From: an uncultured Sandaracinaceae bacterium
Lineage (GTDB): Bacteria > Myxococcota_A > Polyangia > Polyangiales > JAFGIB01
Assembly (NCBI GenBank): GCA_964450715.1
Contig: CAYVFC010000001.1
Coordinates: 18,336 to 82,335 of the forward strand
DNA length: 64,000 nt
Reading direction: 5' to 3'
A program made the translations under genes and the position numbers. Below the pieces are notes generated by a model. The model ran no database searches and was not told the origin of the DNA. It saw only the letters and a program-made list of their open reading frames with translations. Below are positions 3,785 through 42,942 of this stretch, one piece after another (the first letter of the stretch is position 1; each line of letters begins with the position of its first letter).

Positions 3785-3790
3785 TCTCAC

Positions 3791-10092: not shown

Positions 10093-10097
10093 TGACC

Positions 10098-10152
10098 CGT
10101 AGGGGCGGGCCTTGCGCCTGCCCGGGATGGGGCGAGCCCCTCCCCTACCTAC
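10098..10152. repeat. GTAG-type REP-like palindrome
   Basis: cgtaggggcgggccttgcgcctgccc...gagcccctcccctac between convergent genes; related copy at 13070-13096. Confidence 0.65.
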
Positions 10153-10174
10153 GGGAGATGGCGTCGTCTGTCGC

Positions 10175-11029: not shown

Positions 11030-11049
11030 GATGCGATTTCTCCCGAGCT

Positions 11050-17275: not shown

Positions 17276-18504
17276 GCTGGGTAGACGAGAAGACGTACGC
17301 GGAGCTGGCACGGATCCGGGAGGTTCGCGACAAGCAGGCCTACCCCTTTTGCAGACCCTTCGAGACCGGCGGGCTGCACACCAGCGTCGAGGGGCACCAG
17401 ATCGTCAACTTCAGCTCCAACGACTATTTGGGGCTGACCAACCACCCCAAGGTCAAGGAGGCGGCCAAGGCGGCGGTGGATCGCTTTGCCTGCGGGATGA
17501 GCTCCTCGCGTATCCAGGCCACGGCGACCGTGCACGTGGAGATCGAAGAGCGGCTGGCCGCCTGGTACGGCTTCGAGAGCGCGCTGGTCTTCACCACCGG
17601 CTACCAGGCCATGGTGGGCACCATCATGTCGCTGGCCGACCAGGATACCACGTTGGTGCTGGACAATCTGAGCCACGCCTGCATTCTGGACGGCACCTTC
17701 CTGGCAGCGGGTACGCCGCGGCGCTCTCCCGAGGTCAGGTTCTTCAACCACAACTCGGCGCGTTCGTTAGAGCGCATCCTCAAGAATCGGGACCGCAAGA
17801 ACGCGCTGGTCATCTTCGAGGGCGTCTACTCGCTGGACGGCGACAAGGCCAACATGGTCGAGCTGGTCGAGGTCTGCGAGAAGTACGACGCGGTGGTACT
17901 CTGCGACGACGCGCACGGTACCGGCACGCTGGGCAAGCGGGGGACCGGCGTCATCGAGCACTTCGGACTGCAGGGCAGGGTGCCCATCGTGGTCAGCACC
18001 TTCAGCAAGACCTTCGGCGGCATCGGCGGGATCCTGCTGGGCTCGGCCGATCTGACCGATCACGTCAAGCACACCGCCCGCTCCTTCGTCTTCAGCGCTA
18101 CCTTGCCCGCGCCCATCGTAGCGGCGGCCAGCACCATCCTGACCATGCTGGAGACCGAGGGGCCGGCCCTGGTCGAGGAGCTGCAGGAGAAGGCCGGTTA
18201 CATGCGCTCGCGCCTGACTGAGCTCGGGTTTGATCTGGGTATCAGCAACACCCATATCATGCCGGTCATGTGCCGCGACGAGCGCAAGGTGATGTTCATG
18301 CACCTGGCGCTCTACGAGAGCGGCGTCTTTATGGTTCCCGTCATCTATCCGGGCGTCAAGCACGGCGAGGAGCGGTTGAGGCTGAACATCACCCGCGGCC
18401 ACAGCCGCCAGGACATGGACAAAGCGCTCGAGCTGCTCGATACCTACGGCCAGGCTTTCTTCGTACAGTCCGGCGACGAGATCGGCCCCATGGAGGAGGA
18501 GTGA
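17272..18504 (+). CDS. Alpha-oxoamine synthase family PLP enzyme (serine palmitoyltransferase-like)
   Basis: NFSSNDYLGL, TTGYQA, LDNLSHAC, EGVYSLDGD, DDAHG, STFSKTFG (PLP Lys); GTGA overlap with the upstream gene. Confidence 0.85.
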   Translation: MSWVDEKTYAELARIREVRDKQAYPFCRPFETGGLHTSVEGHQIVNFSSNDYLGLTNHPKVKEAAKAAVDRFACGMSSSRIQATATVHVEIEERLAAWYGFESALVFTTGYQAMVGTIMSLADQDTTLVLDNLSHACILDGTFLAAGTPRRSPEVRFFNHNSARSLERILKNRDRKNALVIFEGVYSLDGDKANMVELVEVCEKYDAVVLCDDAHGTGTLGKRGTGVIEHFGLQGRVPIVVSTFSKTFGGIGGILLGSADLTDHVKHTARSFVFSATLPAPIVAAASTILTMLETEGPALVEELQEKAGYMRSRLTELGFDLGISNTHIMPVMCRDERKVMFMHLALYESGVFMVPVIYPGVKHGEERLRLNITRGHSRQDMDKALELLDTYGQAFFVQSGDEIGPMEEE

Positions 18505-18541: not shown

Positions 18542-20437
<1,896 letters not shown>

Positions 20438-20453
20438 AAAGTAAGCGGTAAGC

Positions 20454-20750
20454 GGGACGTACCCAACTAAATCAACTTCCGGAAGTAAAGTAGAAAGCGG
20501 AAACGTACCCAACTAAATCAACTTCCGGAAGTAAAGTAAAGGAAAGAGAAGAGGGGGCAAATCGCCCGATGGCGGTAAGTTGTTTAAATTGGGTACGTCC
20601 CCCGACTCCCCCCCGACTCCGTCCCCCGACTCCCCGATGGCGGTAAGTTGTTTAAATTGGGTACGTCCCCCGACTCCCGACTCCCCGACGGCGGTAAGTT
20701 GTTTAAGTTTGGTACGGCCCCTGACTTCTCGTCCCCTGACTCCTGACTCC
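20454..20750. repeat. Cluster of short related repeats: two 36-bp direct repeats plus three oppositely oriented copies separated by CCCGACT/CCTGACT heptamers
   Basis: acgtacccaactaaatcaacttccggaagtaaagta at 20457 and 20503; cccga(t/c)ggcggtaagttgtttaaattgggtacgtcccc-like units at 20565, 20633, 20684. Confidence 0.85.
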
Positions 20751-21066
20751 GAACGACGAGGCCCCGCGTCACGTATCTAGCTATCGTATCGCTCGCCAAC
20801 TCTACAACACCGACAGGATGCAACTTCTAGAAACTTCCAGGAGAAAATATTCGTAAAAATAGTCAGGGTAACAGTGGCGAATTCTCAAAAAGTACTTGCG
20901 AAGACGAAGGGAGCGGTGTGCCGCTCGACGCAAGCTAATCGAAAGGGTATTATCCGTGTACGGATTACTTGTAGTCGGGGCGGGGCGTAGGTCTGTCTGC
21001 TAACAAAAATCGGTATAAACGCTCGACGTAAGGCGACCGAGCGGGTATCATCAGCTCAAGGATTAC

Positions 21067-21101
21067 TCGTAGACAGGGTGGAAGCGTAAATCTGTCTACG
21101 A
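21067..21101. promoter_or_regulatory. 10-bp perfect inverted repeat in the leader of the first island gene
   Basis: tcgtagacag (21067-21076) / ctgtctacga (21092-21101). Confidence 0.4.
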
Positions 21102-21141
21102 ACCGAAGCTGGCGGAAACGATCTGAGTGCTAATCAAAAGA

Positions 21142-22899
21142 ATGTCGAAGACCAAGATACGTTTTGACCTAATTGCTTTCGGCATCTCGATCGGAATACT
21201 TTTCTTGTTCGCCTTGACCTTCCGAGCGGCGATACAAGCCCGATATGTTATGGACGAATTTCTTTGGGCTTCTTTCGCCGGGGATATCTATCGCGGGCTC
21301 CGACCCTATGTCGATTTTCAGTTCGGGAAGACCGTGCTAGGGCTATATCCCTTCGTCACTCCGTTCTTGTTTTATGATGACACCGCTTCCATCATGCGAG
21401 GTAGTCGATTCATCGGACTAGCTATTGCGGTCGGCGCTCTTATAACGACTTTCGCTGTTTGTCGTCAAGCCTTCCGGCAGCCGGATTCAGAAACCCCGTC
21501 GGCGGGGTTAGAAGATCAAGCGGTAATAGAACGATTCCGTCCTTTAAAGTATATAGGCCTATGGTCTATCTTCTGGATGCTGGCATGCAGTACCTTCCGA
21601 GAGAACTGCTATCAACTCCGAGTAGATATGGCGGCTACGCTGTTCGCGTTAGCCGGAATCTTTCTATATCTAAAGTACAGCGGGCGAACCGGAGCGGTGC
21701 TTTCTGGGGTGTTTGTCGGCCTGGCGTTTTGTATTACGCAAAAAGCAGCATATTTCGTGTTCGCCTTCATGGTCGCAATTATTGCGACTTCCGGCGACGG
21801 TTATCGTCGCTCGTTGCAGCGCCTCGGGCTGTTTGCCGCGGGCGTTGCCGCTTCCTTGGAGGTTTACGTTCTAGCATTCGGTCACGGCGGTTTTTACCAA
21901 GACGTGATCGGTACTACTTTCTTCGACCCCGCCATTGTCGACGTCGCATTAAAGAAGGAATATCCGAACTTAAAGGTTTTTTATTGGCAGATGATATCGC
22001 GAAACTACATTTTTTGCGCGATATCACTCTTCGGCCTTGGCTACGAAGTTAGGCGGTGGACGCGAAACGATCCTCGGCGAAGGTTTTTCTTCGTCTTTAC
22101 TATTACGATGTTGGTCCTGGCAGCGTTACATCGAGCGCCCTGGCCGTATACGTTCGTCATGGTAGTTCCCTTCCTTGCCGTATACGCGGCATTGGCGGGT
22201 CATGTAGCTGTCGAAGCGATTAGCAAGTACCGATATCTGGTTTATCCGGCGCTACTGTTAGTTCTACTGGTCATTTTCGGGCAATCGTTTCTACGATCTG
22301 AAGAGCATTTGCGAATTCCATTGGCGATTCAACTACGCACGGTAGCTGCTGCGGAGGCTATACTAGGCCCTGAGGATACCTATTACGATGCAATTCGTAT
22401 CATAGCCGCGAGACGACCGGCGAGCCGTGTGATTCTTCAGAAGGTGGCATTGAATCAATTGAGAAACGCCTGGGGCCGGCTAGGTTGGTCGTTTATAGAA
22501 GGGATACGGGCTAGTAAATGTAAACTTATGATCTATAATTACCGTTTAGAGTCGTTGCCGGCAAGCTTTAAGGTCTTTATGGTCGATCACTATGTGCTAA
22601 TCGGCGCCAATATATTCGTATCCGGTGCTGAGGTGACCGGTCCAAAGGAAGTAATCGACCTCGTTTGGCCGGGAAGATACCTGGCCTTGAAGAGCGGGGA
22701 TTGCAAGAATATATATATAGATGGTAAAAGGCTCTTGGAAAGAACTTCTTCGGTGAAGCTGGACGCCGGAAGGCATAAAATAGGTTTTACTGGTAAAGGG
22801 ACTCTGCTGCTGGTTCCGGAGGATGCGGGGCGCTGGGTACTGCGCCACGGATTGAGGAAGAAGTTGGTGGCGCTTTTTCACAGAATATATGAGCAGTAG
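21142..22899 (+). CDS. Polytopic membrane protein, GT-C (ArnT/PMT-like) glycosyltransferase candidate
   Basis: MDEF acidic pair after TM1, LRVD, many TM helices, soluble C-terminal domain. Confidence 0.6.
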   Translation: MSKTKIRFDLIAFGISIGILFLFALTFRAAIQARYVMDEFLWASFAGDIYRGLRPYVDFQFGKTVLGLYPFVTPFLFYDDTASIMRGSRFIGLAIAVGALITTFAVCRQAFRQPDSETPSAGLEDQAVIERFRPLKYIGLWSIFWMLACSTFRENCYQLRVDMAATLFALAGIFLYLKYSGRTGAVLSGVFVGLAFCITQKAAYFVFAFMVAIIATSGDGYRRSLQRLGLFAAGVAASLEVYVLAFGHGGFYQDVIGTTFFDPAIVDVALKKEYPNLKVFYWQMISRNYIFCAISLFGLGYEVRRWTRNDPRRRFFFVFTITMLVLAALHRAPWPYTFVMVVPFLAVYAALAGHVAVEAISKYRYLVYPALLLVLLVIFGQSFLRSEEHLRIPLAIQLRTVAAAEAILGPEDTYYDAIRIIAARRPASRVILQKVALNQLRNAWGRLGWSFIEGIRASKCKLMIYNYRLESLPASFKVFMVDHYVLIGANIFVSGAEVTGPKEVIDLVWPGRYLALKSGDCKNIYIDGKRLLERTSSVKLDAGRHKIGFTGKGTLLLVPEDAGRWVLRHGLRKKLVALFHRIYEQ

Positions 22900-23020
22900 C
22901 CAGGCTGTTGTTTGATGCCGAGAAATACCGCGTCGAGATGCGGCGGCGGATAATGCCTCGACGAAGTAAAGCTGGATATATGGGGTTTTCTAAAGTTCTT
23001 CAGTCGATGAGAATGAACGG

Positions 23021-24385
23021 ATGAATAGACGGGTTGCGCTTGTTCAGCCCCGGCTTCCCGACCGGAACTTTATACCCAGCCTAGGGTTGTTATACCTAGC
23101 CGCCGTACTCGAGGCGGAAGGGTTCGAAGTTCGCATATTTGACGAGAATCTAGATGAGGCGTATTGCGAAGAGCTAGTTCGCTTTCGCCCGCTCGTCGTA
23201 GGCTTTACCGTCGTGACGGCGGCGGTAAACCGAGTACGACGTTGTATTTCGGAACTGAGGTCGCGACTACCCGACGCAAGGACAGTTGTCGGGGGACCGC
23301 ACGCGAGTTGTAGGCCGGAGGACCTGGTCGGGCCTTTAGCAGCGGATTTTGCATTCGTAGGAGAGGCGGAGTATCCGTTTCTTGATCTATGCCAAGCTCT
23401 GGTTAGAGGATCGAACGATTACGAATCCATCTCCAATCTGGTACAAAGCCGCAACGGTTCGCTGGTCCGAAATCCGAGCAGGCGGCTGCTCACGACCGAA
23501 GAATTGGATAGGCTTCCGCTACCGGCTTTTCACTTGCTGGACCTGGAGCGGGTGTATCCGTTGTTGACGCACGGCCTTTTTTCGCGTGGTAACAGGACGC
23601 TTCCGATAATGACCTCTAGAGGCTGCCCGTATTCGTGTAGCTTCTGCTGCCGTACAATGGGAAGGGAAATGCGGGGGCGTTCAGTGGAAAACGTCTTGGC
23701 GGAGATCGAGCACCTTATAGAGCGGTTCGAACTGGACGGTATCTACTTCGAAGACGATAATTTCACCTTTGACCGAGAGAGGGCGATGAGGATACTCTCG
23801 GGTATTGCCGCCAGGTTTCCAATGCTGAGCATCAAGTTTGCCAACGGTCTTCGAGCGGATAGAGTAGACGAAGGTCTACTGAAGGCGATCAAGGCCGCCG
23901 GTGGTTATTGGATAGGGTTCGGCATCGAATCGGGATCGCGGCGCATACTCAAATCGATGCGGAAAAGTCTTGATTTGAACCAGGCGCGGCGGAACATAGA
24001 GGTAGCGAAGCGTCTCGGATTCAAAGTCGGATCGAACATCATACTCGGATATCCGGGCGAGACTTGGAGGGATATCGCCGAAAGCATCGGGTTCTTCTTC
24101 CGCCTGAACCTAGACAGTCTGGCGATCGTGAATCTGGTTCCGTTTCCCGGAACCGCTGTTCACGAATTGTGCTATAAAGCCGGATACCTAACGGCCGAGG
24201 CTTCGAATTTAGACAACTATTATTTCGGCCTATTAAAAGTGAAGCACCTGATCCGAACTCCGTCGCTATCGCCCGTCGAGGTACAAGCATCTATTTGGCT
24301 AGCGTACGCGGTCTTGTATGGAACCTCGTGGAAACGGTTGAAGCGTATCTCGGAGACGGTTGCGAGGAAGATTCTGAGGCGTTGA
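23021..24385 (+). CDS. B12-binding radical SAM protein
   Basis: PSLGLLYLAAVL, VVGGPHAS, TSRGCPYSCSFC, FEDDNF, GIESGS, ILGYPGET, VPFPGT. Confidence 0.92.
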   Translation: MNRRVALVQPRLPDRNFIPSLGLLYLAAVLEAEGFEVRIFDENLDEAYCEELVRFRPLVVGFTVVTAAVNRVRRCISELRSRLPDARTVVGGPHASCRPEDLVGPLAADFAFVGEAEYPFLDLCQALVRGSNDYESISNLVQSRNGSLVRNPSRRLLTTEELDRLPLPAFHLLDLERVYPLLTHGLFSRGNRTLPIMTSRGCPYSCSFCCRTMGREMRGRSVENVLAEIEHLIERFELDGIYFEDDNFTFDRERAMRILSGIAARFPMLSIKFANGLRADRVDEGLLKAIKAAGGYWIGFGIESGSRRILKSMRKSLDLNQARRNIEVAKRLGFKVGSNIILGYPGETWRDIAESIGFFFRLNLDSLAIVNLVPFPGTAVHELCYKAGYLTAEASNLDNYYFGLLKVKHLIRTPSLSPVEVQASIWLAYAVLYGTSWKRLKRISETVARKILRR

Positions 24386-24386
24386 C

Positions 24387-25322
24387 ATGGAAAGAGAGAA
24401 TAGAAAGATAGCCGTCGTCATTCCCTGCTATAACGAGGCCCAAACGATAGGGAAGGTAGTTGAGGACTTCAAGAGAGAGCTTCCGGACGCGGAAATATAC
24501 GTGTATGATAACAATTCTAAGGATAGAACCGCGGAGGTGGCGAAGAGGAGCGGAGCTAAAGTTCGTTTCTGCACGAGACAGGGTAAGGGGATGGTGGTGC
24601 GCCAGATGTTTGCGGAGGTGTCCGCAGATGTCTACGTGATGGTCGACGGCGACGACACTTATACCGCGAGCGATGTACACGCGCTGCTTGCGCCGGTGCT
24701 TGACGGTACTTGTGACCTTTGCGTGGGGAATCGTCTCCAAAGATACGCCCGCGGCTCATTTGCGTTATTCCATCTGTTCGGAAATAGGCTCATCAAAACA
24801 ATGATGGAGCGTTTTTACTTGGCGAGAATTGACGATATGTTGTCAGGTTATAGGGTGCTTACTCGTGAAGTGGTAGAGGACCTAACGTTAATCTCTACGG
24901 GATTTGAGATAGAAACGGAAATTAATATCAGAGCGGTTTGGAGAGGTTATCGGATCGTTTGCGTCCCCACCATATATAAGAAGAGGCCAGAGGGAAGCGT
25001 TTCAAAGATCCGTTTGTTTTCGGACGGGTATCGCATATTGGCGACGATGCTGGTTTTGTTACGCGAGCATCAGCCGGTGACTATGGCGGGGTACGTTTTA
25101 TTGATGTGTACTTTGCTTGCGGCTGCGGGTATGGCCTCCGGGCTTCATTACGGCAACGTATATTTATTCACAGGGGCGCTAGCCCTTTTAGTATGCGGGG
25201 TAACGGTCATATGTACTGGAATTGTCCTGAATGCGACAAACTGGGCGCATAGAGAATCGGAAGTTCGAGAGCAAAAGTTGATACGCTTATTGAAAGAATA
25301 TAGAAGCGAAACCGATCGATGA
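24387..25322 (+). CDS. GT2 glycosyltransferase, polyprenol-phosphate glycosyltransferase (DPM1/ArnC-like) with 2 C-terminal TMs
   Basis: VIPCYNE, DNNSKD, GKG, VDGDDTY, SGYRV, GFEIETE. Confidence 0.88.
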   Translation: MERENRKIAVVIPCYNEAQTIGKVVEDFKRELPDAEIYVYDNNSKDRTAEVAKRSGAKVRFCTRQGKGMVVRQMFAEVSADVYVMVDGDDTYTASDVHALLAPVLDGTCDLCVGNRLQRYARGSFALFHLFGNRLIKTMMERFYLARIDDMLSGYRVLTREVVEDLTLISTGFEIETEINIRAVWRGYRIVCVPTIYKKRPEGSVSKIRLFSDGYRILATMLVLLREHQPVTMAGYVLLMCTLLAAAGMASGLHYGNVYLFTGALALLVCGVTVICTGIVLNATNWAHRESEVREQKLIRLLKEYRSETDR

Positions 25323-26710
25323 AGGTATTGTTACTAAGCCCGCCGTTTAAGAAGGACTATATGCGCAACGCTCGTTGCGACTTCGTGTCTCAATCGCACA
25401 CCCAGTGGTATCCGATTTTGCTAGGATCGGCGGGAGCGTTGTTGGAAAAACACGGGCACGAAACGCGTCTGGTAGATGCCCCGGCGGAGAATCTTTCCGA
25501 GCGAGCTGTAGAAGCGATAGGGCGCGATTTTCAGCCGGACGTGTTAGCCGTGTACGGAGGGAGAATGAGCGAGCGATCCGATCAGGAGTTGGCGGATCGC
25601 TTTTCGGCGAATCTAGGATGCCGAACCGTATTTTGCGGTCCATATGTTTCGATCGCACCCCGTCGGTGGCTCGAAAATACCGAAAGGGTAGAGGCGGTTA
25701 TCGACGGAGAGATGGAATTCACGCTGTTAGAATTCGTCGAGAAGAGAAACAACGATAGTATTTCCGGCCTGATTTATAAGAGGGGAGATGATGTCGTGGC
25801 GAATTCGAGCCGCGCTTATATGAATACGGAACAGCTAGACAGTATCCCGTTCGTTTCAAGCTATTTAAAAAGGCAGGTAAATATTAGAAATTACCGGGCG
25901 ATTTCGGAGCCGTTTCCTTTTATGGACATCATGTCGGGACACGGCTGCCATTGGGGAGTGTGTTCGTTTTGCTTGTGGGTACATAGCTACGTAAAGGGAC
26001 GTGTCTACAACGGACGTTCGGTAGAACGATTAATCGGCGAATTCGAGTACGTAAGGACTTGGATGCCGGAAGTTCGTTCGATAATGATACAAGATGATAC
26101 GATCCCCGAAGCGCGCATGATCGAGATGTGCGAAGCCCTTATTCGCGCGCGGATAAAACTGGTCTGGTCTTGCTATGCTAGGGCGGAGCTTGAGGCGGAG
26201 ACGTTGCGGTTAATGAAAAAGGCAGGGTGCCTCAACTTGCACGTAGGTTTCGAGTCGGCTGACGAGGTAGTGCTGAAAAAAGCTAGGAAGGGAATAAGCA
26301 GAGGTCGTATGACGCGCTTCGCCGCCGATGCTCGTAAAGCGGGCCTGCATATTCACGGAGATTTCTTGATAGGGCTGGACGGTGAAAGACGAGAGAGTGT
26401 TTTGAAAACGGTAGAGTGGGCGAAGTTTTTGAAGGTGGACTCGGCTCAATTTCAAATGATGATACCATTTGAGGGTACGCCGCTTCACAGATCTCTTACC
26501 GAAAAGGGGCAACTACGGGATGGATATCCCGACTACCCACATTTATCGATAGAGGAAATGAAGGGGTTGCAGCGAAAGGCTTACCGGTCTTTTTATCTAC
26601 GTCCGAGCCAGTTGCTCAAGATAGCTGCGCATCCGAAGAGCCGGCTTTGGCACTATTTGAAGGTTGCGCACAAGATTGTACCTAACATTATCGGTAAGGC
26701 GGAGTGCTGA
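25319..26710 (+). CDS. B12-binding radical SAM protein, HpnJ-like
   Basis: QWYPILL, VDAP, GCHWGVCSFCLW (CX4CX2C), QDDT, WSCYARA, GFESA, IHGDFLIG, IPFEGT. Confidence 0.85.
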   Translation: MKVLLLSPPFKKDYMRNARCDFVSQSHTQWYPILLGSAGALLEKHGHETRLVDAPAENLSERAVEAIGRDFQPDVLAVYGGRMSERSDQELADRFSANLGCRTVFCGPYVSIAPRRWLENTERVEAVIDGEMEFTLLEFVEKRNNDSISGLIYKRGDDVVANSSRAYMNTEQLDSIPFVSSYLKRQVNIRNYRAISEPFPFMDIMSGHGCHWGVCSFCLWVHSYVKGRVYNGRSVERLIGEFEYVRTWMPEVRSIMIQDDTIPEARMIEMCEALIRARIKLVWSCYARAELEAETLRLMKKAGCLNLHVGFESADEVVLKKARKGISRGRMTRFAADARKAGLHIHGDFLIGLDGERRESVLKTVEWAKFLKVDSAQFQMMIPFEGTPLHRSLTEKGQLRDGYPDYPHLSIEEMKGLQRKAYRSFYLRPSQLLKIAAHPKSRLWHYLKVAHKIVPNIIGKAEC

Positions 26711-27889
26711 GTGACCATTTCGCTGTTAGGCTATCTGATAGGCGGTGTATTGATAACCGTACTAGCATGGTGCTACAGCGTCTATTATCTCGTTTTAGAT
26801 AGGGGGAGGGAGACGACAGGAGTCGTAGAATCTACTGTCGACGAAGAACCATTACGCTTTAGTATTATCATTCCGTGTTACCAGGAAGAAGGGTGGATCC
26901 TAGAGAAACTAGAAAACACCGCGATGTTGAAATATCCAGAGGAATGCGTAGATATATTCGTTGTAGACGGAGGGTCGACGGACGAGACGCCTAAGATAGC
27001 CGAGGAGTACTGCGTATCGAGGAAGAACTATCACTTCGTTTCGTCGCCGAAAAAGGGAAAGATACCGCAGTTAAATCATATATTAAAAGACGTTGATGGC
27101 GGAATTGTCGTCGTTACGGACGTTGACGGCAAGGTCGCGCCGGATGCATTGCAAAAACTGGCTCAATTATACCGGGACCCGAGAGTAGGTTGCGTCAGTG
27201 CATTCGCGGAACCTACGAATCCTTCTCCGGAAGAAAAACTTTTTTGGCGATATCAGAACGCGATGCGTTCGATAGAGAGCGAACGCGGGCATGTCTCGGT
27301 AATGATAGCGGTGTTCTATTCGTTTCGGCGAGAGCTGTTTCATCTTTATCCGGAAGATGTGGTCGCCGACGATGTTTATGTAGCGTTTTGCGGAAATACA
27401 CGAGGATACAGGTGTCATTATAGCGCCGGCATACGGGCAGCAGAATCTAGAAGCGCGAGCTCGTTTTCTCAAATGCTAGAGCATAAGCTAAGAAAAGTTA
27501 ACGCGAATATGAAAGAGTTGGTTCGCTTTTGGCCGAGGCTGGCGGAGATGCGTGGCGTATGGTTGGTAATATATATCACGAAGTACGCGCAACATTGGTT
27601 TGTGGCTCCATCTATCCTGGCTCTCGTGGCGTTGTTTACGGCGACGTTAGCGCTCGACGGCGTTGGGGCTCTGAAGTTTTGGGGCCTAGCGGTCGTGACT
27701 TTGGTTTTTTTACAAGGAATGGCGAATAAGGCAATGAAGAAATATATGGGGGCTGCCGAGGGAAAGAGGGATAAGGCGCGGATAGGCCGAAAGCTTCTGT
27801 ATATGGTCTTCTTTCATATGATACTATTACTGGGGCTTATTCGCTACTTTGTCGTTCGTCAGTCGAGCGTATACAAAAAGGTAAACTAG
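26711..27889 (+). CDS. Membrane-anchored GT2 glycosyltransferase
   Basis: N-terminal TM, IIPCYQE, VDGGSTD, GK, TDVD, ADD, C-terminal TMs; GTG start. Confidence 0.85.
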   Translation: MTISLLGYLIGGVLITVLAWCYSVYYLVLDRGRETTGVVESTVDEEPLRFSIIIPCYQEEGWILEKLENTAMLKYPEECVDIFVVDGGSTDETPKIAEEYCVSRKNYHFVSSPKKGKIPQLNHILKDVDGGIVVVTDVDGKVAPDALQKLAQLYRDPRVGCVSAFAEPTNPSPEEKLFWRYQNAMRSIESERGHVSVMIAVFYSFRRELFHLYPEDVVADDVYVAFCGNTRGYRCHYSAGIRAAESRSASSFSQMLEHKLRKVNANMKELVRFWPRLAEMRGVWLVIYITKYAQHWFVAPSILALVALFTATLALDGVGALKFWGLAVVTLVFLQGMANKAMKKYMGAAEGKRDKARIGRKLLYMVFFHMILLLGLIRYFVVRQSSVYKKVN

Positions 27890-27902
27890 CTGAAGGGGAA
27901 GA

Positions 27903-28907
27903 GTGTATATAGTAGCGGGAGCGAACGGTTTCGTTGGAGCATCGGTATGCCGATCGCTGGCGGACGAAGGCCGGGAAGTAACCTTGCTTGTACATCGGCG
28001 AGCCGACCATCCGTTTCTGGAAGAAAGGGCGGGAAGGCTGGTGTACGGCGATGTATGTTTTCCGGAGACCTATCGGAATTTGCTCGACGAGAAATCGATA
28101 GTCATCAATTGCGCGGGATACGTATCGTTTAGCCGGGAAGACCGCGAGGAAACGTGGAGGGTAAACGTAGAAGGGACGAGAAGGTTGCTTGATGCGTGCG
28201 AGAAAGCGAAGGTAAAGACAGTATTACACGTTTCCGCAGGAGCATCCTACAAAACGGTTTCGACAAAACAGGGACTAATCAGCGAGGAATCGGAATTTGT
28301 AGACGAAAAGGGCAACGATTACGCGCGCAGCAAGAAGGAAGCGGAAACGCTATGCGCGGATGCGGCCGCTCGGGGGTTACGAGTACTGATCGTAAACCCG
28401 GCTACGACCTACGGAGCGGGAGACTACCGGTTAAAAGCTGGCGGCCGCGTGGTAGATGAGGTCGTACGAAGGCGGGCGCGCGTCGCGCCGCCGGGCGGCA
28501 CTTCGTGGATAGATATCGACGACCTAGTAGAAGGAATTAAGAGGGTGATAGAAAAAGGTAGATCGGGAGAGAGTTATATCTTGAGCGGAGGGAACCTGAC
28601 GTATCGAGAGTTGTTTTCGGTGATTGCTGAAGAGACGGGGCTGATAGCCCCGAAGATCGAAATACCGGGGCAATTGGAGGGCGCAATTGTAGCGATCGCA
28701 ACCTTAGCCGATAGCGTTGCCAAGAAGATGAAAGTAGGGCGTTCGATATCACCGGAACAGATAGGCGAAACCTTTCGCTATAAATGGTACTCTAGCGATA
28801 GGGCTAAAAGAGATGTGGGATTTAGCGCCAGAACGGATTTCAGCGAGAGCGTAAGAAGGACGATAGAGTTCAGTAAAAAATACGGTCTGGGAATCTTTTC
28901 GTTTTAG
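27903..28907 (+). CDS. NAD-dependent epimerase/dehydratase (HpnA/DFR-like extended SDR)
   Basis: GANGFVG, NVEGT, YARSK, VNPATTYG, GESYIL. Confidence 0.88.
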   Translation: MYIVAGANGFVGASVCRSLADEGREVTLLVHRRADHPFLEERAGRLVYGDVCFPETYRNLLDEKSIVINCAGYVSFSREDREETWRVNVEGTRRLLDACEKAKVKTVLHVSAGASYKTVSTKQGLISEESEFVDEKGNDYARSKKEAETLCADAAARGLRVLIVNPATTYGAGDYRLKAGGRVVDEVVRRRARVAPPGGTSWIDIDDLVEGIKRVIEKGRSGESYILSGGNLTYRELFSVIAEETGLIAPKIEIPGQLEGAIVAIATLADSVAKKMKVGRSISPEQIGETFRYKWYSSDRAKRDVGFSARTDFSESVRRTIEFSKKYGLGIFSF

Positions 28908-28933
28908 CGGAAGTAACGAAACGGTGGGATCGG

Positions 28934-29722
28934 ATGGTCAAAAAGACAGTAGGCGGAAGAAACCTATCGAATGAGAGGGTAAAACAGGCCAACCGCAAGT
29001 TTTTCGATATGGTTGCGGAAGATTACGAAGTCGCTGATGGGAGAAGAGGGCCGCGGCTAGCATCTTATCTGCGGAAACAGATCGGCCGGCTAATTTCGTT
29101 GACGGGACGCGAGAGCCTTCTCGATTTAGGAACGGGGTCCGGATTCGCGGCTTCAGTAGCGAGGGAGCAATATGAGTTTGTGGTCGGTGTCGACATTTCC
29201 TCGAAAATGGTGCGCGAAGCAGCCAGGCTTCATCCGGATTGCCGGTTTCTTTGCGCGGATTCGGACGCGTTGCCGTTCGGTAGCGAGACCTTCGATTGCG
29301 TAGTATCGATCGCGGTGTTGCATCATTTACCGCGCTACGATTCGATGTTGAGGGAAGTTTATCGAGTATTAAAACCGGGAGGGGTATTTTATTCGGACCA
29401 CGATATAGAGAGTCGTTTTTGTCAACTATTCAAGATGCCGTTGGGTATGTTTCGCTTAGTACGAGACGAAGAACGTGCATACCGAAAAGTATGCCCTGAG
29501 CTGACTAGCGAGCTCTATGAGCTTACGGAAGTACACCGAAACGGCGTGGAAATAGAGCTTATTAGAAGAGATCTCGAGAGTGCCGGGTTCAGCGATAGTA
29601 GGTTCTATTACCACTGGTACGGATTGAACGGAATATTCGACTATGTAGGAGCGTTATTGTCGCCGGGAGGAAAAGGGAGACGGGGGTTTGCACCGTCGGT
29701 ATCGATCTGGGCGCGTAAGTAG
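28934..29722 (+). CDS. Class I SAM-dependent methyltransferase
   Basis: LDLGTGSG, GVDIS, ADSDALPF, FDCV, VLHH, VLKPGG. Confidence 0.9.
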   Translation: MVKKTVGGRNLSNERVKQANRKFFDMVAEDYEVADGRRGPRLASYLRKQIGRLISLTGRESLLDLGTGSGFAASVAREQYEFVVGVDISSKMVREAARLHPDCRFLCADSDALPFGSETFDCVVSIAVLHHLPRYDSMLREVYRVLKPGGVFYSDHDIESRFCQLFKMPLGMFRLVRDEERAYRKVCPELTSELYELTEVHRNGVEIELIRRDLESAGFSDSRFYYHWYGLNGIFDYVGALLSPGGKGRRGFAPSVSIWARK

Positions 29723-29732
29723 GAGAAAAAGG

Positions 29733-30827
29733 ATGATCGAAGATGTCTTCAGGTACTGGTTGGCGGCGAAATACGGCGTCCATTGGAGAAAACCGAGGTT
29801 ACTAAAAAGTCTAGCTATTACGTCGGCAGAAGTATACGCGCTAAAGAGGCCGCTGCTGCGTTATGTAGATTTTGCCGTAGATTTTCCCTGCAATTTGCAG
29901 TGCGTTCATTGCTTTAACACGACGCTCAAAGATAAGAACGGGCAGCGTAAGCTGCTGGAAGTCGAAGAATATCGAGCGATTGCTCGAGAATGCAGGAAGA
30001 TGGGGGCGGTGGCGTTTTCTTTTCAGGGCGGGGAACCATTGCTCTTTCTAGATCGACTTCTAGAGGTAATACAGGTATTCGATCCGTCTGGCGCTCTGAT
30101 ATCGGTCACCACGAACGGGACTCTGGGGACCCCGGTGATTCTCCGGAGGCTGTACGATGCGGGAGTGGATATTCTTACGGTTAGCCTGGACAGCGGAATA
30201 GCCGAGGAACACGATGGTTTTCGCGGGCTGGAGGGAGCTTTTAAAAGGACGGTAGAAACGATAGACGCGGCTTTGAAAACCGGCTTGAGAGTAACTATAG
30301 GGACGACGGTTTCACATCAAAGTGTGAGGGGAGAGGGATTGAAGGGGCTGATGGAGTTCGCCAGGAGCAGGCGCTGTCAGCTCATGTTGGGGTTCGCGGT
30401 GTCAGCCGGAAGGTGGAAAGGAAAGGAAGAGGTGCTGTTGACGGATGAGGATCTTACTCTAATAGAGGAGTACATGAGGAAAAATCGATTCGTAAGAACA
30501 GATATGAAAGGCAATTACCTGCACCCGGGTTGTGGTGCGATGAAAGAGATTATGTACGTTACGCCATACGGAGAGGTTTTATGCTGCCCGTTCGTGCATA
30601 TTTCCTTCGGAGATGCGAAAAGAGAATCGATGTCGCTAATTCGAGAAAGGGCGCTTAAGAATCCTTATCTGAAGCGGTATTGGCCGAAGTGCTTGGCCGC
30701 GACTGACGAAGGTTTTAGGAACGCGATACTGTCGCAATTGGAGGAGGCGAAAACGTTGCCGATCGACTATAGAGATATAGATTGGGGAGGGAAAGATAAA
30801 GAGGGAGCTAGTTTTGTGGGGGGGTGA
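29733..30827 (+). CDS. Radical SAM protein with C-terminal Twitch/SPASM-like domain
   Basis: CNLQCVHC, GGEP, TTNG, SLDS, CGAMKE...YVTPYGEVLCCPF. Confidence 0.88.
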   Translation: MIEDVFRYWLAAKYGVHWRKPRLLKSLAITSAEVYALKRPLLRYVDFAVDFPCNLQCVHCFNTTLKDKNGQRKLLEVEEYRAIARECRKMGAVAFSFQGGEPLLFLDRLLEVIQVFDPSGALISVTTNGTLGTPVILRRLYDAGVDILTVSLDSGIAEEHDGFRGLEGAFKRTVETIDAALKTGLRVTIGTTVSHQSVRGEGLKGLMEFARSRRCQLMLGFAVSAGRWKGKEEVLLTDEDLTLIEEYMRKNRFVRTDMKGNYLHPGCGAMKEIMYVTPYGEVLCCPFVHISFGDAKRESMSLIRERALKNPYLKRYWPKCLAATDEGFRNAILSQLEEAKTLPIDYRDIDWGGKDKEGASFVGG

Positions 30828-30845
30828 AGCTAGTTTTGTAGGGGG
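30806..30845. repeat. Short tandem duplication at the island right end
   Basis: agctagttttgt at 30806 and 30828, each followed by a G run. Confidence 0.7.
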
Positions 30846-30962
30846 TAAGGGAGGGCGTACGGCTTCGGTGACGGGTGCGGACGACGCCTTGAGTAAAAGC
30901 CCGGCCAGCTAGGAATCGACGTTATAGCCGTCCTCGAGCAGGGCGAAAGCGATTTATTATAC

Positions 30963-31847
30963 TTATACCGCTAGGGCGAGATTGGAAAAGAACTCGCGCA
31001 GGATGGCGGCGGTGCCAGCCGGATTCTCCTGCGGGATCAAGTGGCCGGCCCCGGCGAACTCGCGGTAGCTGCCGCGGGGGAAGAGGCTCGTGGCTTTTTT
31101 CAGATCGATGAAGAGGCGGTTTTCGCTCTTCTCGCCCTCCAGGACGAGCACCGGATCGGGCACGCGCGATAACAGCGGCCAGGGATTCAGGTGGCTGCTT
31201 CCCATGAACTGAGAGGCCTCGCGTTCGGGAGAGCAGGCCAGGACCAGACCCCCGTCGGGACCGGGTTTCATGCCGTGGCTCAGGTAAAGGTCGAGCACCT
31301 CGCGGTTCCAGCTCTTGAACATGTCGCGGCTCAGCAGGTACTGCTCGGCCTCGGCGTGGTCCTGCCAGAAATTGCGCCGCTTGATGGACTTGCTGGCCAG
31401 CGGGTGGTCGTCGACCTTGCGGATGGCGCTATAGGCGAAATCGGGCAGGTAGATGGGCTCGATCAAGACCAGGGCGGCGGCGAGGGAGGGATGCTCGGCG
31501 TTGGCCAGCGTGATTACGGTCCCGCCCATGGAGTGGCCGACCATGAAGGGGCGTTCGAGGCCGAGCTTTTGGCAGAGGTCATACAGGTCCGCCGCCAGCA
31601 CCGGCCAGGCGAGCCCGCCCCGGTGAGGATCGCTCGGCCGGTGGTCGCAGAAATAGGGCGCGTAAACCCGGAAGCCGCCGGCATTGAGCTCCCGGGAGAT
31701 GGGGTGCCAGAGCCAGGGGTTGAAGCCGGTGGCGTGCAGCAGGACTACGGCCGGCCCGTCGCCCGGGTAGTGAAGGTACTGCAAATCGAGCTCGCCGATC
31801 GACGCGCTTTTGACCTCGGGCTGGATTTCCTGGGGGCGCTGTTGCAC
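30963..31847 (-). CDS. Alpha/beta hydrolase
   Basis: LHATGF, GHSMGG nucleophile elbow, AGHLIPQE. Confidence 0.88.
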   Translation of the reverse strand: MQQRPQEIQPEVKSASIGELDLQYLHYPGDGPAVVLLHATGFNPWLWHPISRELNAGGFRVYAPYFCDHRPSDPHRGGLAWPVLAADLYDLCQKLGLERPFMVGHSMGGTVITLANAEHPSLAAALVLIEPIYLPDFAYSAIRKVDDHPLASKSIKRRNFWQDHAEAEQYLLSRDMFKSWNREVLDLYLSHGMKPGPDGGLVLACSPEREASQFMGSSHLNPWPLLSRVPDPVLVLEGEKSENRLFIDLKKATSLFPRGSYREFAGAGHLIPQENPAGTAAILREFFSNLALAV

Positions 31848-31856: not shown

Positions 31857-32822
31857 TCAGAGCCCCAGGGCCTTGCGAATGCGCTCGACCGGGGGGGTCA
31901 TGTCCAGCTCGATGGACCCGCCGCGCACGGTCTCGCATGCTTCGATGTAGCGGCGGGCCGACTCCACCCTGATTTCGTCCGGGATCTGGGGGATGGGGCC
32001 GTCGCCCTTGAAGCCCTGCTCGACCAGCCAGCGGCGAAGGTACTCCTTGTCGAAGCTGTTGGGCGACTCGCCGCGGGCCATCTGGCTCTGGTAGGTATTG
32101 GCGAACCAGAAACGCGAGGAGTCGGGGGTGTGGATCTCGTCCATGACCACGATGCGACCGTCCGGGGTTTCGCCGAATTCGTACTTGGTATCCACCAGGA
32201 TCAAGCCGTTCTCGGCGCAGACCTTCTGGCCGAAGGCGAAGAGCTTGAGCGCGTAGTCGGCTACCTGATCGAACTGCTCGGCGCTGATCTTGCCCATCTG
32301 CAGGATCTGCTCGCGCGAAACGCTGATGTCGTGCTCGCCCTTGGGCGCCTTGGTGCTGGGGGTGAGAATGGGCTCGGGCAGCTTCTGGTGCGGCTTCATG
32401 CCGTCCGGCAGTTTATGGCCGCAGAATTCGCGCTCGCCCTTGTTGTAGGCGGTGAGGATGCTGGTGGAGGATACCCCGGTGAGATAGGCGCGCACCACCG
32501 CTTCCACCTCCAACGGCTTGCACTCGGTGCAGATCATCACATTGGGGTCGGGGGCGGAGAGCAGGTGGTTGGGTACCAACGAGGCGGTGCGCTCGAACCA
32601 CCAGACCGCCGCCTGATTCAGCACCTGTCCCTTGAAGGGAAGGGTGCCTAGCACCCGGTCGAAGGCGCTGATGCGGTCGGTGGTGATGATGATGCGCTTG
32701 CCGTCCGGCGCGCTGTAGTTGTCCCGCACCTTACCCTGGTACTTGACGCCCAGAACGTCGAAGTCGGTCTTCTCCAGGGTGAGAGAAAGTCCTTTGTACA
32801 AAGTATCCTTGTCGGTGGCCAT
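31857..32822 (-). CDS. purC: Phosphoribosylaminoimidazole-succinocarboxamide (SAICAR) synthase
   Basis: GKVRDNY, TDRISAFD, EAVVRAYL, TPSTKA, LVDTKYEFG, DEIHTPDSSRFW, FDKEYLR. Confidence 0.95.
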   Translation of the reverse strand: MATDKDTLYKGLSLTLEKTDFDVLGVKYQGKVRDNYSAPDGKRIIITTDRISAFDRVLGTLPFKGQVLNQAAVWWFERTASLVPNHLLSAPDPNVMICTECKPLEVEAVVRAYLTGVSSTSILTAYNKGEREFCGHKLPDGMKPHQKLPEPILTPSTKAPKGEHDISVSREQILQMGKISAEQFDQVADYALKLFAFGQKVCAENGLILVDTKYEFGETPDGRIVVMDEIHTPDSSRFWFANTYQSQMARGESPNSFDKEYLRRWLVEQGFKGDGPIPQIPDEIRVESARRYIEACETVRGGSIELDMTPPVERIRKALGL

Positions 32823-32824
32823 GT

Positions 32825-34132
32825 TCACTCCTGTTTTGCCTCCAGCGCCCGTTCGATGATGGTATCGACGTGAGCGAGCGCGTGGTCGAGATCGAACTGC
32901 GCGTCGATTTCCTTTTCCTCGAGCAGCTCGCGGATCTCCTGGTCCGCCAGCAGTAACCGTTTGAACTCTCCCTCGCCGGCAAAGGCCCGCATGGCGTTGC
33001 GCTGTACCATCACGTAGGCCTCTTGGCGCGCAATCCCCTTGTCGACCAGGGCCAGCAGCACCCCCTCGCTGGCCCAGAGCCGTCCGGTCATTTCCAGGTT
33101 GGCCTGCAACTTTTCCGGGTAGACGACCATGTTCTTCACCAGGCGGGCGAGCCGGTCGAGCATGAAGGCCAGGGTGGTGGTGGCGTCAGGAAAGGCCATA
33201 CGTTCCACCGAAGAGTGGCTGATGTCGCGTTCGTGCCAGAGCGCCACGTTCTCCATGGCCGGGGTGACCATGGCGCGCACTATCCGGGCCAGGCCGCAGA
33301 GGTTCTCGCTCAGGATGGGGTTGCGCTTGTGGGGCATGGCGCTGGAGCCCTTCTGCCCCTTCTTGAAGGCTTCCTCGGCCTCGCCCACCTCGGTGCGCTG
33401 CCAGTGGCGGATGTTGGTGGCGAACCGTTCGATGCCGGCGGCGATCACCCCGAGCGCGGCCGCATAAAAAGCGTGCCGGTCTCGGCTGACCACCTGGGTG
33501 GAGACGGTCTCGGGCAGCAGGCCCAAACGTTCCAGCGCCTCTCGCTCGATGGTCGGGGTCAGGTGGGCGTAGGTGCCGACCGCGCCAGCGAGCTTGCCCA
33601 CCGCGATCTCGGCGCGCGCGGCCCGCAGGCGTTCGCGGCCCCGGCAAAGCTCGGCGTAGTGGCCGGCCAGGGCCAGGCCAAAGGTGACCGGCTCGGCGTG
33701 GATGCCGTGGGAGCGGCCCATCATGGGCGTGCGGCGGTGCTCCCGTACCCGGCCGGCCAGCGCCTCCAGCAGGGCGTCGAGGCGCTGTAGCAGCAGATCC
33801 GACGCCTCGCGTAGGATGAGCGCCAGCGAGGTGTCGAGCACATCCGAGGAGGTCATGCCGCGATGCAGGTAGCGGGCGGGAGGGCCGGCCAGCTCCTCGA
33901 CATGGGTGAGAAAGGCGATCACGTCGTGCCGGGTGGTGCGCTCGATCTCGTCGATGCGCTCGGAACGTAGCTGGGCGCGGAACCCCTTGACGCTGGCCGC
34001 GGTGCCCGCGGGCACGCTGCCGGCCGTTTCCATGGCTTCGCAGGCCGCGATTTCGACGTCGAACCAGGTCTGGTACTTGTGCAGGTCGGACCAGAGAATG
34101 ACGAACTGTTCGGGGGAATAACGGGGAATCAT
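32825..34132 (-). CDS. purB: Adenylosuccinate lyase
   Basis: [45 protein letters not shown]. Confidence 0.96.
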
Positions 34133-38300: not shown

Positions 38301-38497
38301 CGCAATTGTATTCGATGATACTGCAACCTTAGCACGGCTTGAAGGGTCTTGGGGGGGGGATGCACAGGGTTTTTCTCTGTTGACCGTTCTCCCCTTCCGG
38401 GGTCGCGCGCTGGCCGGGGAATGGGTTACCATACCAACCGATGATATTTTCATCCACCAGCGAGACGGTCGCCACAGTGCTGTCAAAGGAGCGAAGA

Positions 38498-41877: not shown

Positions 41878-41881
<4 letters not shown>
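41240..41881 (-). CDS. Hypothetical exported coiled-coil protein
   Basis: Signal-like N-terminus; GTGA overlap with the kinase stop. Confidence 0.6.

Positions 41882-42942
<1,061 letters not shown>

Follow-up and report, generated by a model that had tools for sequence, protein, structure and literature searches.

A foreign low-GC operon of radical SAM enzymes and membrane glycosyltransferases in a Polyangiales-like myxobacterium, with a possible role in tailoring lipid-linked sugars

The stretch of DNA analysed here (the window) covers 64,000 nucleotides of contig CAYVFC010000001.1 from an uncultured Sandaracinaceae bacterium, and it contains a low-GC island of about 10.5 kb (20.44-30.96 kb). 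This island is an operon of eight genes, which encode three radical S-adenosylmethionine (SAM) enzymes, three membrane glycosyltransferases, an extended short-chain dehydrogenase (SDR) and a methyltransferase (MT). Our results suggest, with a probability that we put at about 0.5, that the operon tailors a membrane-lipid-anchored sugar by radical chemistry, and that it was acquired recently by a Polyangiales-like myxobacterium from a lower-GC donor, whose cassette resembled that of Victivallales. The product of the operon is probably an undescribed cell-envelope glycolipid or glycan decoration. The island belongs to a cassette family that is widespread but uncharacterised, the parts being new members of known superfamilies and the combination of them undescribed.

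Results

Extent, composition and gene content of the island

All 1-kb bins between positions 21001 and 31000 have a GC content of 0.49-0.55, the remaining bins of the window having 0.59-0.74, and the mean GC of the island is 0.50 versus 0.67. At a resolution of 150 nt the GC content drops directly 3' of the recQ stop codon (20437) and recovers at about 30900-30960, short of the stop codon of a hydrolase gene (30963), so that the island occupies one intergenic space between recQ and a hydrolase-purC-purB block. The same break is seen in codon usage. GC at third codon positions (GC3) is 0.53-0.60 in the eight island genes and 0.86-0.90 in host genes, and codon usage departs from that of the host set by a Jensen-Shannon divergence of 0.13-0.19 in all eight island genes compared with 0.02-0.06 in 19 host genes, which is three to five times the host range. 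The coding strand of the island has, in addition, a strong skew of G over C. A low-GC island had been marked at 20760-30850 in a first-pass annotation of this DNA; the sliding GC and codon analysis confirms it and extends it slightly on both sides.

The eight open reading frames (ORFs) are intact and all lie on the + strand, the last seven of them being spaced by -4 to +26 nt. Independent gene calls on a public contig place the start of the first gene at 21142 and that of the last gene at 29733, and these starts replace the mechanical ORF starts. The gene content given at first pass, namely eight co-oriented genes with three radical SAM enzymes, two GT2 glycosyltransferases, a GT-C glycosyltransferase, an epimerase and a methyltransferase, stands as it was. 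The same applies to the statement about missing functions: in Pfam and NCBIfam scans of 20440-30960 there is no wzx/wzy gene, ABC exporter, nucleotide-sugar synthesis gene, polyketide synthase or nonribosomal peptide synthetase (PKS/NRPS). All eight proteins stay below the curated cut-offs of the NCBIfam models. PADLOC gave no specific defence-system match, only generic domain-level ones (pVip through the radical SAM core, mad2 through the MT domain, and PDC-M51A), and a reading of the region as a defence island was rejected for that reason.

The island is physically real and is no assembly artefact, because read depth is equal over flanks and island in two sediment samples (approximately 88-100x in one run and 7-10x in the other). 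In both sediment-metagenome runs, of 2021 and 2024, the island was found at 99-100% of the sampled words, and its sequence is identical in these samples taken three years apart. The right junction lies inside a single contig of 11,555 nt. Overlapping pieces cover the left junction, where there is a repeat array at which short-read and independent assemblies fragment. Considering the intact motifs described below and the identical sequence across samples, the enzymes of the island look functional.

A cassette family conserved across phyla

The island is one case of a cassette that recurs in distant lineages. One genome per species was scanned with an alignment of the HpnJ-like family, to which the radical SAM enzyme rSAM_B of the island belongs, and this yielded 80 loci, nearly all from metagenome-assembled genomes (MAGs) or single-amplified genomes (SAGs). 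Bacterial carriers belong to Planctomycetota, Omnitrophota, Elusimicrobiota, Nitrospirota/Nitrospinota, Brocadiaceae (including Ca. Kuenenia), Desulfobacterota, Myxococcota, Acidobacteriota, Gemmatimonadota, Proteobacteria and Chloroflexota. Archaeal carriers are two MAGs, one of Woesearchaeota (L039) and one of Altiarchaeota (L068), and these archaeal-binned cassettes reflect either inter-domain transfer or mis-binning. In L068 the HpnJ-like gene is directly followed by a GT2 gene of the dolichol-phosphate mannose synthase (DPMS) type, and rSAM_A, rSAM_C, SDR and MT are present, without the membrane-embedded GT2 (GT2_TM) of the island.

When all neighbouring ORFs of the 73 loci having an HpnJ-like gene were clustered without bias, the most recurrent neighbours turned out to be the families of the island itself. 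rSAM_B is accompanied most often by GT2_TM (45/73 loci), then by MT (40/73), SDR (30/73), rSAM_A-like proteins (25/73) and rSAM_C (22/73). Where the contig extends for 8 kb or more to either side (30 loci), the proportions are 67% for GT2_TM (20/30), 50% for MT, 43% for SDR, 43% for rSAM_A-like proteins and 37% for rSAM_C, and the neighbour families are co-oriented with the HpnJ-like gene in 85-95%. The order GT2_TM > rSAM_C > SDR > MT > HpnJ-like is repeated in many phyla, and the minimal pair of GT2_TM and HpnJ-like gene stands alone in many Planctomycetota. Two more SPASM radical SAM families, additional B12-type radical SAM enzymes, DPM1-like GT2s and GT-C-like proteins recur among the neighbours as well, and the number of radical SAM genes reaches seven per locus. 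At eight loci (L043, L062, L065, L066, L083, L085, L086 and L087) a membrane FA_desaturase-family gene with His boxes lies directly upstream of the HpnJ-like gene, which hints at a lipid substrate; these variants come from Acidobacteriota, Nitrospinota, Gemmatimonadota and Alphaproteobacteria.

In terms of this survey the island consists of a conserved core (GT2_TM, the HpnJ-like enzyme, SDR, MT and rSAM_C) and of accessory members, which are rSAM_A, the DPMS-like GT2 and the GT-C protein (ORF1). About 90% of the loci lack both an orthologue of the DPMS-like GT2 and an ORF1-type GT-C and yet retain GT2_TM and radical SAM enzymes, and no orthologue of ORF1 was found in any other cassette of the survey. 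It had been proposed at first pass that GT2/GT-C pairs transfer lipid-linked sugars and that the cassette builds a heavily radical-modified sugar and attaches it to a cell-envelope lipid or protein. The first half gains from one GT2 being a DPMS-like synthase of polyprenyl-phosphate-hexose; a transfer of such a modified sugar by the GT-C is less well supported, because the radical SAM core mostly occurs without either member of the pair, which therefore looks accessory to the pathway. The search for homologous cassettes otherwise bore out what had been proposed, in that the genes are clustered and not dispersed in other genomes, and no characterised cluster matches them. Full-text literature searches, which did not extend to subscription-only papers, found no description of the cassette or of these HpnJ-like homologues.

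Enzymes of the conserved core

All three radical SAM proteins score above the gathering threshold of Radical_SAM PF04055 (29.5 bits), with 77.1 bits for rSAM_A, 51.5 for rSAM_B and 72.2 for rSAM_C. The anchor of the family, rSAM_B (25319-26710, +), is matched over its full length by the HpnJ model TIGR03471 with 261 bits (E 2.1e-77), the cut-off being 577.6 and the next family scoring 98 bits; by profile it is a member of a sister family of HpnJ and no equivalog. Its AlphaFold2 (AF2) model (mean predicted local distance difference test, pLDDT, 89.6) is closest in Foldseek to AprD4 (TM-score 0.76-0.80) and then to OxsB, TsrM and MgmA. AprD4 is also its best sequence match in the PDB, at 20-21% identity, with 75 bits to the AprD4 model NF033070 (cut-off 500). 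Its homologues number 727. In the family alignment there is an invariant CX4CX2C motif (C210/C215/C218) instead of the canonical CX3CX2C, as well as an invariant N-terminal MRNARCDF motif with a conserved Cys20. This cysteine is possibly a ligand of a second metal site. By analogy with its relatives rSAM_B probably performs a sugar-radical rearrangement, either a ring contraction or a 1,2-diol dehydration.

B12-radical SAM enzymes had been assumed at first pass, and two of the three have an N-terminal domain of the B12 type. The assignment is supported for rSAM_A, which has a B12-binding domain of 74.3 bits (cut-off 32.1), and falls short for rSAM_B, where the same domain gives 25.3 bits, under the Pfam gathering threshold of 32.1, and where the best fold match, AprD4, is cobalamin-free.

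The membrane-embedded glycosyltransferase GT2_TM (26711-27889, +) has one N-terminal and about three C-terminal helices. It matches Glycos_transf_2 with 80.9 bits and, marginally, Glyco_transf_21 with 22.2 bits (cut-off 21.7); the best PDB match is the membrane GT2 6YV7 (79 bits). The conserved motifs are DGxSxD, TDxD and ADD, together with a family-specific HKxRKxNA in the place where processive GT2s carry QxxRW. The HpnI model gives only 18 bits (cut-off 310). GT2_TM probably glycosylates a lipid acceptor.

The SDR (27903-28907, +) is an HpnA-like or 3-beta-HSD-like extended enzyme, which is matched over its full length by the HpnA model TIGR03466 with 167.4 bits (cut-off 367.65), by SdmB with 135 bits and by Pfam Epimerase with 120.6 bits. 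Its GxxGxxG motif and S/YxxxK triad are shared by 30 orthologues, and the protein is probably a sugar keto-reductase, oxidase or epimerase. The MT (28934-29722, +) is a class-I SAM-dependent methyltransferase (Methyltransf_11, 91.7 bits), in which motif I (LLDxGxGsG) is conserved in 40 orthologues, and it probably O- or N-methylates. The last gene, rSAM_C (29733-30827, +), encodes a radical SAM enzyme with a C-terminal cysteine cluster of the SPASM/twitch type. The SPASM profile gives 20.9 bits, just under the cut-off of 21.5, the C-terminal cysteines are conserved in 22 orthologues, and the radical SAM motif CNLQCVHC (CX3CX2C) lies at residues 68-75 of the long ORF. As judged from its best PDB matches, the cytosylglucuronate decarboxylase BlsE (44 bits) and MoaA, rSAM_C is nearest to sugar- and tetrapyrrole-modifying enzymes.

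Accessory enzymes

The accessory radical SAM enzyme rSAM_A (23021-24385, +) is predicted to be of the cobalamin type (class B), with the cluster motif CPYSCSFC (CX3CX2C) at residues 202-209. Its best PDB sequence match is 9CCB, the glutamine C-methyltransferase MgmA/QCMT of methyl-coenzyme M reductase (MCR), with 86.7 bits, followed by AprD4 and TokK; against the AprD4 model NF033070 it scores 113 bits (cut-off 500). Orthologues with at least 44% identity occur in about 13 loci. It is a probable C-methyltransferase of sp3 carbons, to go by these matches.

The second GT2 (GT2_AglJ, 24387-25322, +) resembles DPMS and AglJ and thus synthases of polyprenyl-phosphate-hexose. It scores 221 bits with the AglJ model TIGR04182 (cut-off 325) and 89 bits with a dolichyl-phosphate hexose transferase model, the best PDB match is the dolichol-phosphate mannose synthase of Pyrococcus (5MLZ), and two transmembrane helices are located at the C-terminus (residues 231-249 and 263-281). 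According to these features the protein has a DPMS-like architecture and is no AglJ equivalog. Orthologues are present in only about six loci of the survey, and the predicted role is that of an accessory donor-maker for the GT-C. The three-component set of synthase, flippase and GT-C is incomplete here, as no flippase of the GtrA, SMR, MATE or Wzx type is encoded in 20440-30960.

ORF1 (21142-22899, +) is a divergent GT-C glycosyltransferase. Since the protein itself has no sequence match in Pfam, NCBIfam or the PDB, this assignment is based on the fold and on the members of its family. The AF2 model (pLDDT 92.6, pTM 0.92) comprises a PMT/ArnT-like membrane domain of roughly 11 helices and a periplasmic beta-sandwich in the C-terminal third, which corresponds to DUF7055/DUF7056 in relatives. 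The top 25 Foldseek matches in the PDB are all GT-C proteins (ArnT with TM-scores of 0.52-0.57, PglB, ALG9/12, Pmt4 and Emb/Aft), and the beta-sandwich has a weak match resembling a carbohydrate-binding module (CBM). An exhaustive homologue search gave 383 representatives. Among 56 relatives, 24 carry PMT_2 (20) or PMT (4), DUF7056 is found in 38 and DUF7055 in 30, and the acidic motif M42-D43-E44 is at least 90% conserved. With its multi-helix fold, the acidic motif located in its first extracytoplasmic loop and its relatedness to PMT_2, ORF1 has the features of PMT/ArnT-like GT-C proteins. One relative, in Mesorhizobium, adjoins genes for a GtrB-like GT2, GtrA and an MT. The large membrane proteins beside the closest cassettes (L003, L005 and L007) showed no pairwise similarity to ORF1 and were rejected as its orthologues.

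Host and origin of the island

PurB, encoded in the right flank, is 73-76% identical to proteins of Polyangiales/Myxococcales MAGs, and the host is therefore a Polyangiales-like member of the Myxococcota, from sediment. The island has other relatives. rSAM_B is 64-65% identical to proteins of the unclassified metagenome contigs L003 and L004 and 59% identical to those of a Victivallales MAG (L005/L008), and merely 44-50% identical to the two Myxococcota copies (L015 and L061). In a neighbour-joining tree of HpnJ-like proteins the copy of the window is sister to L003 and L005 and is placed far from L015 and L061. In seven other hosts, whose GC content ranges from 0.38 to 0.71, the GC of the cassette equals that of its surroundings, whereas the island of the window is off by 17 points. 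The composition break, the placement in the tree and the GC match elsewhere together argue for a recent cross-phylum transfer from a lower-GC donor, and they indicate that the donor cassette resembled that of Victivallales (Lentisphaerota). An acquired cassette had been suspected at first pass, and composition, codon usage and phylogenetic incongruence all back it.

No tRNA was found at the island, and no integrase or transposase is present among the island genes in the Pfam and NCBIfam scans; the two junctions share no repeat of at least 9 nt. Related Polyangiales contigs with a PurB 74-76% identical keep purB-purC-purS and not recQ or the hydrolase, their gene order being too diverged to serve as an empty-site comparison.

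Discussion

Proposed function of the operon

A lipid-linked sugar is the likely substrate, because HpnJ and HpnA are the best curated-family matches and because the solved relatives AprD4 and BlsE are sugar-modifying enzymes. A lipid anchor is suggested further by the fact that all three glycosyltransferases are membrane proteins, one of them DPMS-like, by the desaturase-family partner in some lineages and by the absence of nucleotide-sugar and export genes. DprE1/E2 and ORF13, which tailor sugars on polyprenyl phosphate ahead of a GT-C (PMC11127046), are a precedent for this reading too.

While the class, fold and motif integrity of the enzymes and the linkage of their genes can be read from the data, we infer from known precedents how the steps are ordered, which lipid and sugar are involved, which radical reactions take place and what product results. 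On the cytoplasmic face GT2_TM would move a hexose or hexosamine from a nucleotide sugar onto the lipid acceptor. Then rSAM_B would abstract a hydrogen from a carbon of the lipid-linked sugar, a start common to two possible rearrangements: contraction of the ring to a carbocyclic cyclitol, which is the reaction proposed for HpnJ and calditol synthase, or 1,2-diol dehydration as in AprD4. The HpnA-like SDR could act as its partner in a coupled keto reduction or oxidation; a 1,2-diol dehydration combined with nicotinamide-dependent reduction would explain why the SDR is so tightly linked. In a third step rSAM_C and rSAM_A would add C-H functionalisation, probably C-methylation, and the MT would O- or N-methylate. 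Finally, the DPMS-like GT2 would make polyprenyl-phosphate-hexose, an enzyme encoded elsewhere would flip it, and the periplasmic GT-C would use it to glycosylate the tailored glycolipid or a neighbouring envelope glycan. Two halves can be told apart in this scheme, and the arrangement that we favour is that the core makes a tailored glycolipid head group, which the accessory pair glycosylates periplasmically.

Several considerations weigh against the proposal. All curated-family scores are below cut-off, and transfer of function from HpnJ, HpnA and AglJ is by analogy only. The enzyme rSAM_B could be independent of cobalamin, and its sequence and fold are compatible with contraction and dehydration alike. 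The island contains neither a flippase nor nucleotide-sugar genes. Lastly, relatives of ORF1 are mostly located outside such cassettes, and most cassettes have neither the GT-C nor the DPMS-like GT2, which makes the tie of these two to the radical SAM core tentative.

Relation to known systems and alternative explanations

The strongest alternative, clearly less probable than the lipid head group proposal and still to be taken seriously, is one in which the tailored molecule is the glycosyl donor itself, as in the Arn and Dpr pathways. The DPMS-like GT2 would load undecaprenyl phosphate with a hexose, the radical SAM enzymes, SDR and MT would tailor this polyprenyl-phosphate-sugar in the cytoplasm, and the GT-C would deliver it after flipping to lipopolysaccharide (LPS) or lipid A, to an exopolysaccharide or to a protein, the product being a decorated envelope polymer and not a new head group. 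The comparison here is with three-component glycosylation systems (GtrA/B/C, ArnC/E/F/T, PPPRS-MATE-GT136 and DPPRS-DprE1/E2-Emb/Aft). Like them, the island pairs a polyprenyl-phosphate-sugar synthase, in the same operon, with a GT-C having a periplasmic beta-sandwich, and the Mesorhizobium relative of ORF1 sits in a GtrB-GtrA-type locus. The weak CBM-like match of that beta-sandwich recalls the glycan-acceptor binders of GT136 and Emb (PMC11127046). An SDR or epimerase can act on the polyprenyl-phosphate-sugar before transfer, and the tailoring of polyprenyl-phosphate-linked sugars ahead of GT-C transfer has its precedent in DprE1/E2 and ORF13 (PMC11127046). The context of related cassettes points in the same direction, since the closest ones (L003 and L005) lie amid further GT2, DUF2079 and PMT_2 membrane proteins typical of glycan loci, and since the archaeal L068 has a DPMS-like GT2 right after the HpnJ-like gene and no GT2_TM. 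ArnD is a further precedent for the tailoring of lipid-linked sugars. What tells against a tailored donor is that some 90% of the loci do without both the DPMS-like GT2 and the ORF1-type GT-C and keep GT2_TM and radical SAM enzymes. Moreover, the island has no flippase gene, ORF1 has no orthologue among the GT-C-like neighbours of the closest cassettes and belongs to a separate family (DUF7055/7056) without a characterised member, and the three radical SAM enzymes and the second, membrane-embedded GT2 have no counterpart in the three-component systems.

The lipid head group proposal itself draws on the hopanoid pair HpnI/HpnJ, in which a GT2 puts N-acetylglucosamine (GlcNAc) on bacteriohopanetetrol and a cyclitol ether is proposed to arise when a radical SAM enzyme contracts the ring of this sugar (PMC13459092). 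The cassette likewise has a membrane GT2 adjoining a radical SAM enzyme with an N-terminal Rossmann domain, and the chemistry would, as we infer, take place on a lipid-anchored sugar. It could be asked whether the cassette is simply a divergent hopanoid side-chain pathway, in which GT2_TM, rSAM_B and SDR serve as functional HpnI, HpnJ and HpnA on bacteriohopanetetrol and lead to lipids of the bacteriohopanetetrol (BHT) cyclitol ether type. HpnJ and HpnA are indeed the top curated-family matches over the full length, the minimal pair of GT2 and radical SAM genes resembles hpnI-hpnJ, and hopanoid production is known from some of the carriers, among them Planctomycetota and anammox bacteria. The cassette is nevertheless unlikely to have a true hopanoid function, because the scores are far below threshold (261 versus 577.6 bits for HpnJ, 167 versus 367.65 for HpnA and 18 versus 310 for HpnI), because a motif test, the only one applied (DxDD and at least three QW motifs), finds no ORF resembling squalene-hopene cyclase (SHC) in the 64-kb window or in 87 related loci, and because the cassette occurs in lineages without bona fide HpnI and HpnJ. 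Such lineages are Elusimicrobia, Omnitrophota and the two archaeal MAGs (DPANN-type or Altiarchaeota), in which one would not expect hopanoids, and bona fide HpnI and HpnJ are reported only in genomes with SHC and HpnH (PMC12324291). The cassette also differs from hopanoid clusters in its composition: it lacks the HpnK deacetylase, has no shc or hpnH nearby, and adds further radical SAM enzymes, an MT, a DPMS-like GT2 and a GT-C.

A second model for the head group proposal is the calditol synthase Cds of Sulfolobus, a radical SAM enzyme that contracts the ring of a glucose head group on glycerol dialkyl glycerol tetraether (GDGT) lipids, and HpnJ and Cds have been reviewed together for ring contraction on lipid-linked sugars (PMC13459092). 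The parallel, a radical SAM enzyme turning a lipid-linked hexose into a carbocyclic polyol head group, is conceptual only (PMC13459092): Cds acts alone on archaeal tetraethers, whereas the cassette is mostly bacterial and multi-enzyme.

A third model comes from antibiotic biosynthesis. AprD4 and AprD3, a radical SAM 1,2-diol dehydratase and an NADPH reductase, carry out the C3'-deoxygenation of paromamine in apramycin biosynthesis, and the cassette similarly seems to pair a sugar-radical enzyme with a nicotinamide-dependent reductase. The difference is that AprD4 belongs to an antibiotic cluster of an actinomycete and has a soluble pseudodisaccharide as its substrate, and that the partners of rSAM_B are membrane glycosyltransferases. 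A soluble specialised metabolite of the aminocyclitol, deoxysugar or nucleoside type, unrelated to the envelope, seems improbable, to about the same degree as a hopanoid. It would account for the origin of the nearest solved relatives (AprD4, BlsE and OxsB), all from antibiotic pathways, and for the multiple methyltransferases and radical SAM genes, up to seven of the latter in a locus. It does not fit three of the eight proteins being integral-membrane glycosyltransferases, among them a GT-C using lipid-linked donors, nor the membrane desaturase-family partner elsewhere, and the island has no core scaffold enzyme, aminotransferase, NDP-sugar gene, exporter or resistance gene.

An assembly or binning artefact, or decaying passenger DNA without function in the host, would be in keeping with the extreme compositional mismatch and with the break of assemblies at the left repeat array, yet it is the least probable explanation, given the equal depth in two independent samples, the junctions covered on both sides, the identical sequence in 2021 and 2024, and eight intact, tightly spaced or overlapping ORFs with conserved catalytic motifs.

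Implications

To our knowledge few radical SAM enzymes that remodel lipid head groups are known (HpnJ and Cds), and none of them has been reconstituted. The cassette family provides a large and phylogenetically broad HpnJ-like set with defined partners, ranging from the minimal GT2 and radical SAM pair to seven radical SAM genes, and these defined partner sets make the chemistry accessible to heterologous expression. The chance that the product represents a new lipid class is substantial. A new glycolipid or envelope decoration, should it prove to be the product, would extend the lipid classes of many uncultured sediment and groundwater lineages by one, possibly of use as a biomarker, and it would mean that envelope-remodelling modules move between phyla as compact operons. 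If, on the other hand, the tailored sugar goes to the GT-C, the island would represent the first three-component glycosylation system with radical-SAM-modified donors.

A more far-reaching idea, which we advance tentatively and consider possible but doubtful, is that the cassette family as a whole makes undescribed bacterial membrane lipids, in which a head group generated by radical SAM chemistry, either carbocyclic (resembling calditol or cyclitol ethers) or a C-methylated deoxy-sugar, is carried by a non-hopanoid lipid. Such lipids would then occur widely among uncultured anaerobic lineages (Planctomycetota, Omnitrophota, Elusimicrobia, Nitrospirota, Desulfobacterota, Myxococcota and some DPANN or Altiarchaeota) and be open to exchange from phylum to phylum as a unit, and orphan acid-resistant polar lipids or biomarkers of sediments might derive from them.

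Other features of the locus and of related cassettes

The repeat array at the left junction (20454-20745, without strand) has two direct copies of 36 nt (20457-20492 and 20503-20538) and three inverted copies of 46 nt (20565-20610, 20633-20678 and 20684-20729). The repeat core is ACGTACCCAAnTnAAnCAACTT, and C-rich CGTCCCCCGACTCC repeats are present as well. A search of the window with the core gave three matches versus zero expected, none of them outside the array, which could be an element resembling repetitive extragenic palindromes or miniature inverted-repeat transposable elements (REP/MITE-like), a protein-binding array or an integration relic. The leader of the first gene, ORF1, contains two 62-nt direct repeats (20922-21081, +), 73% identical and each with hairpin potential. 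Rfam yields no match at E <= 1 anywhere in leader and island, neither to a riboswitch nor to any other known RNA. Promoter and terminator scans stay at chance level, and so do the promoter-like hexamers within the 62-nt repeats.

The flanks are of host composition. On the left, recQ, encoding a RecQ helicase (18542-20437, +), has a GC3 of 0.87, and the proteins of this flank are an aspartate transaminase, two ketosynthases, a BioF/Spt-like enzyme dependent on pyridoxal phosphate (PLP) and RecQ. Just upstream of recQ, a FabF-like ketosynthase (14791-16029, +), a second protein of the ketosynthase/chain-length-factor (KS/CLF) type (16055-17275, +) and a BioF/Kbl/serine-palmitoyltransferase-like PLP enzyme (17272-18504, +), all below curated cut-offs, may form a host pathway for an amino-lipid or sphingoid base; its position beside a glycolipid-type island with a GT21-like GT2 may be a coincidence. 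On the right, an alpha/beta-fold hydrolase (30963-31847, -; GC3 0.86) is followed by purC (31857-32828) and purB (32825-34132). Further into this flank there are Ser/Thr protein kinase genes (36120-38828, -, and 41878-42942, -), which are typical of Myxococcota.

Two of the related cassettes deserve mention. The locus of a Ca. Kuenenia sp. MAG (L077, about 1-11400), an anammox bacterium, is an enlarged cassette with at least five radical SAM genes, two GT2s, an SDR and an MT in one direction. It is a different locus from the published ladderane candidate clusters of Kuenenia; a ladderane reading, prompted by this homologue, was rejected because those clusters are embedded in fatty-acid synthesis genes and the cassette is not. 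In the tree the HpnJ-like protein of L007 (GCA_002213405.1, 'cyanobacterium TDX16') is hardly separated from the one of a Planctomycetaceae MAG (L021), which suggests that the contig, or the label of the assembly, is not cyanobacterial.

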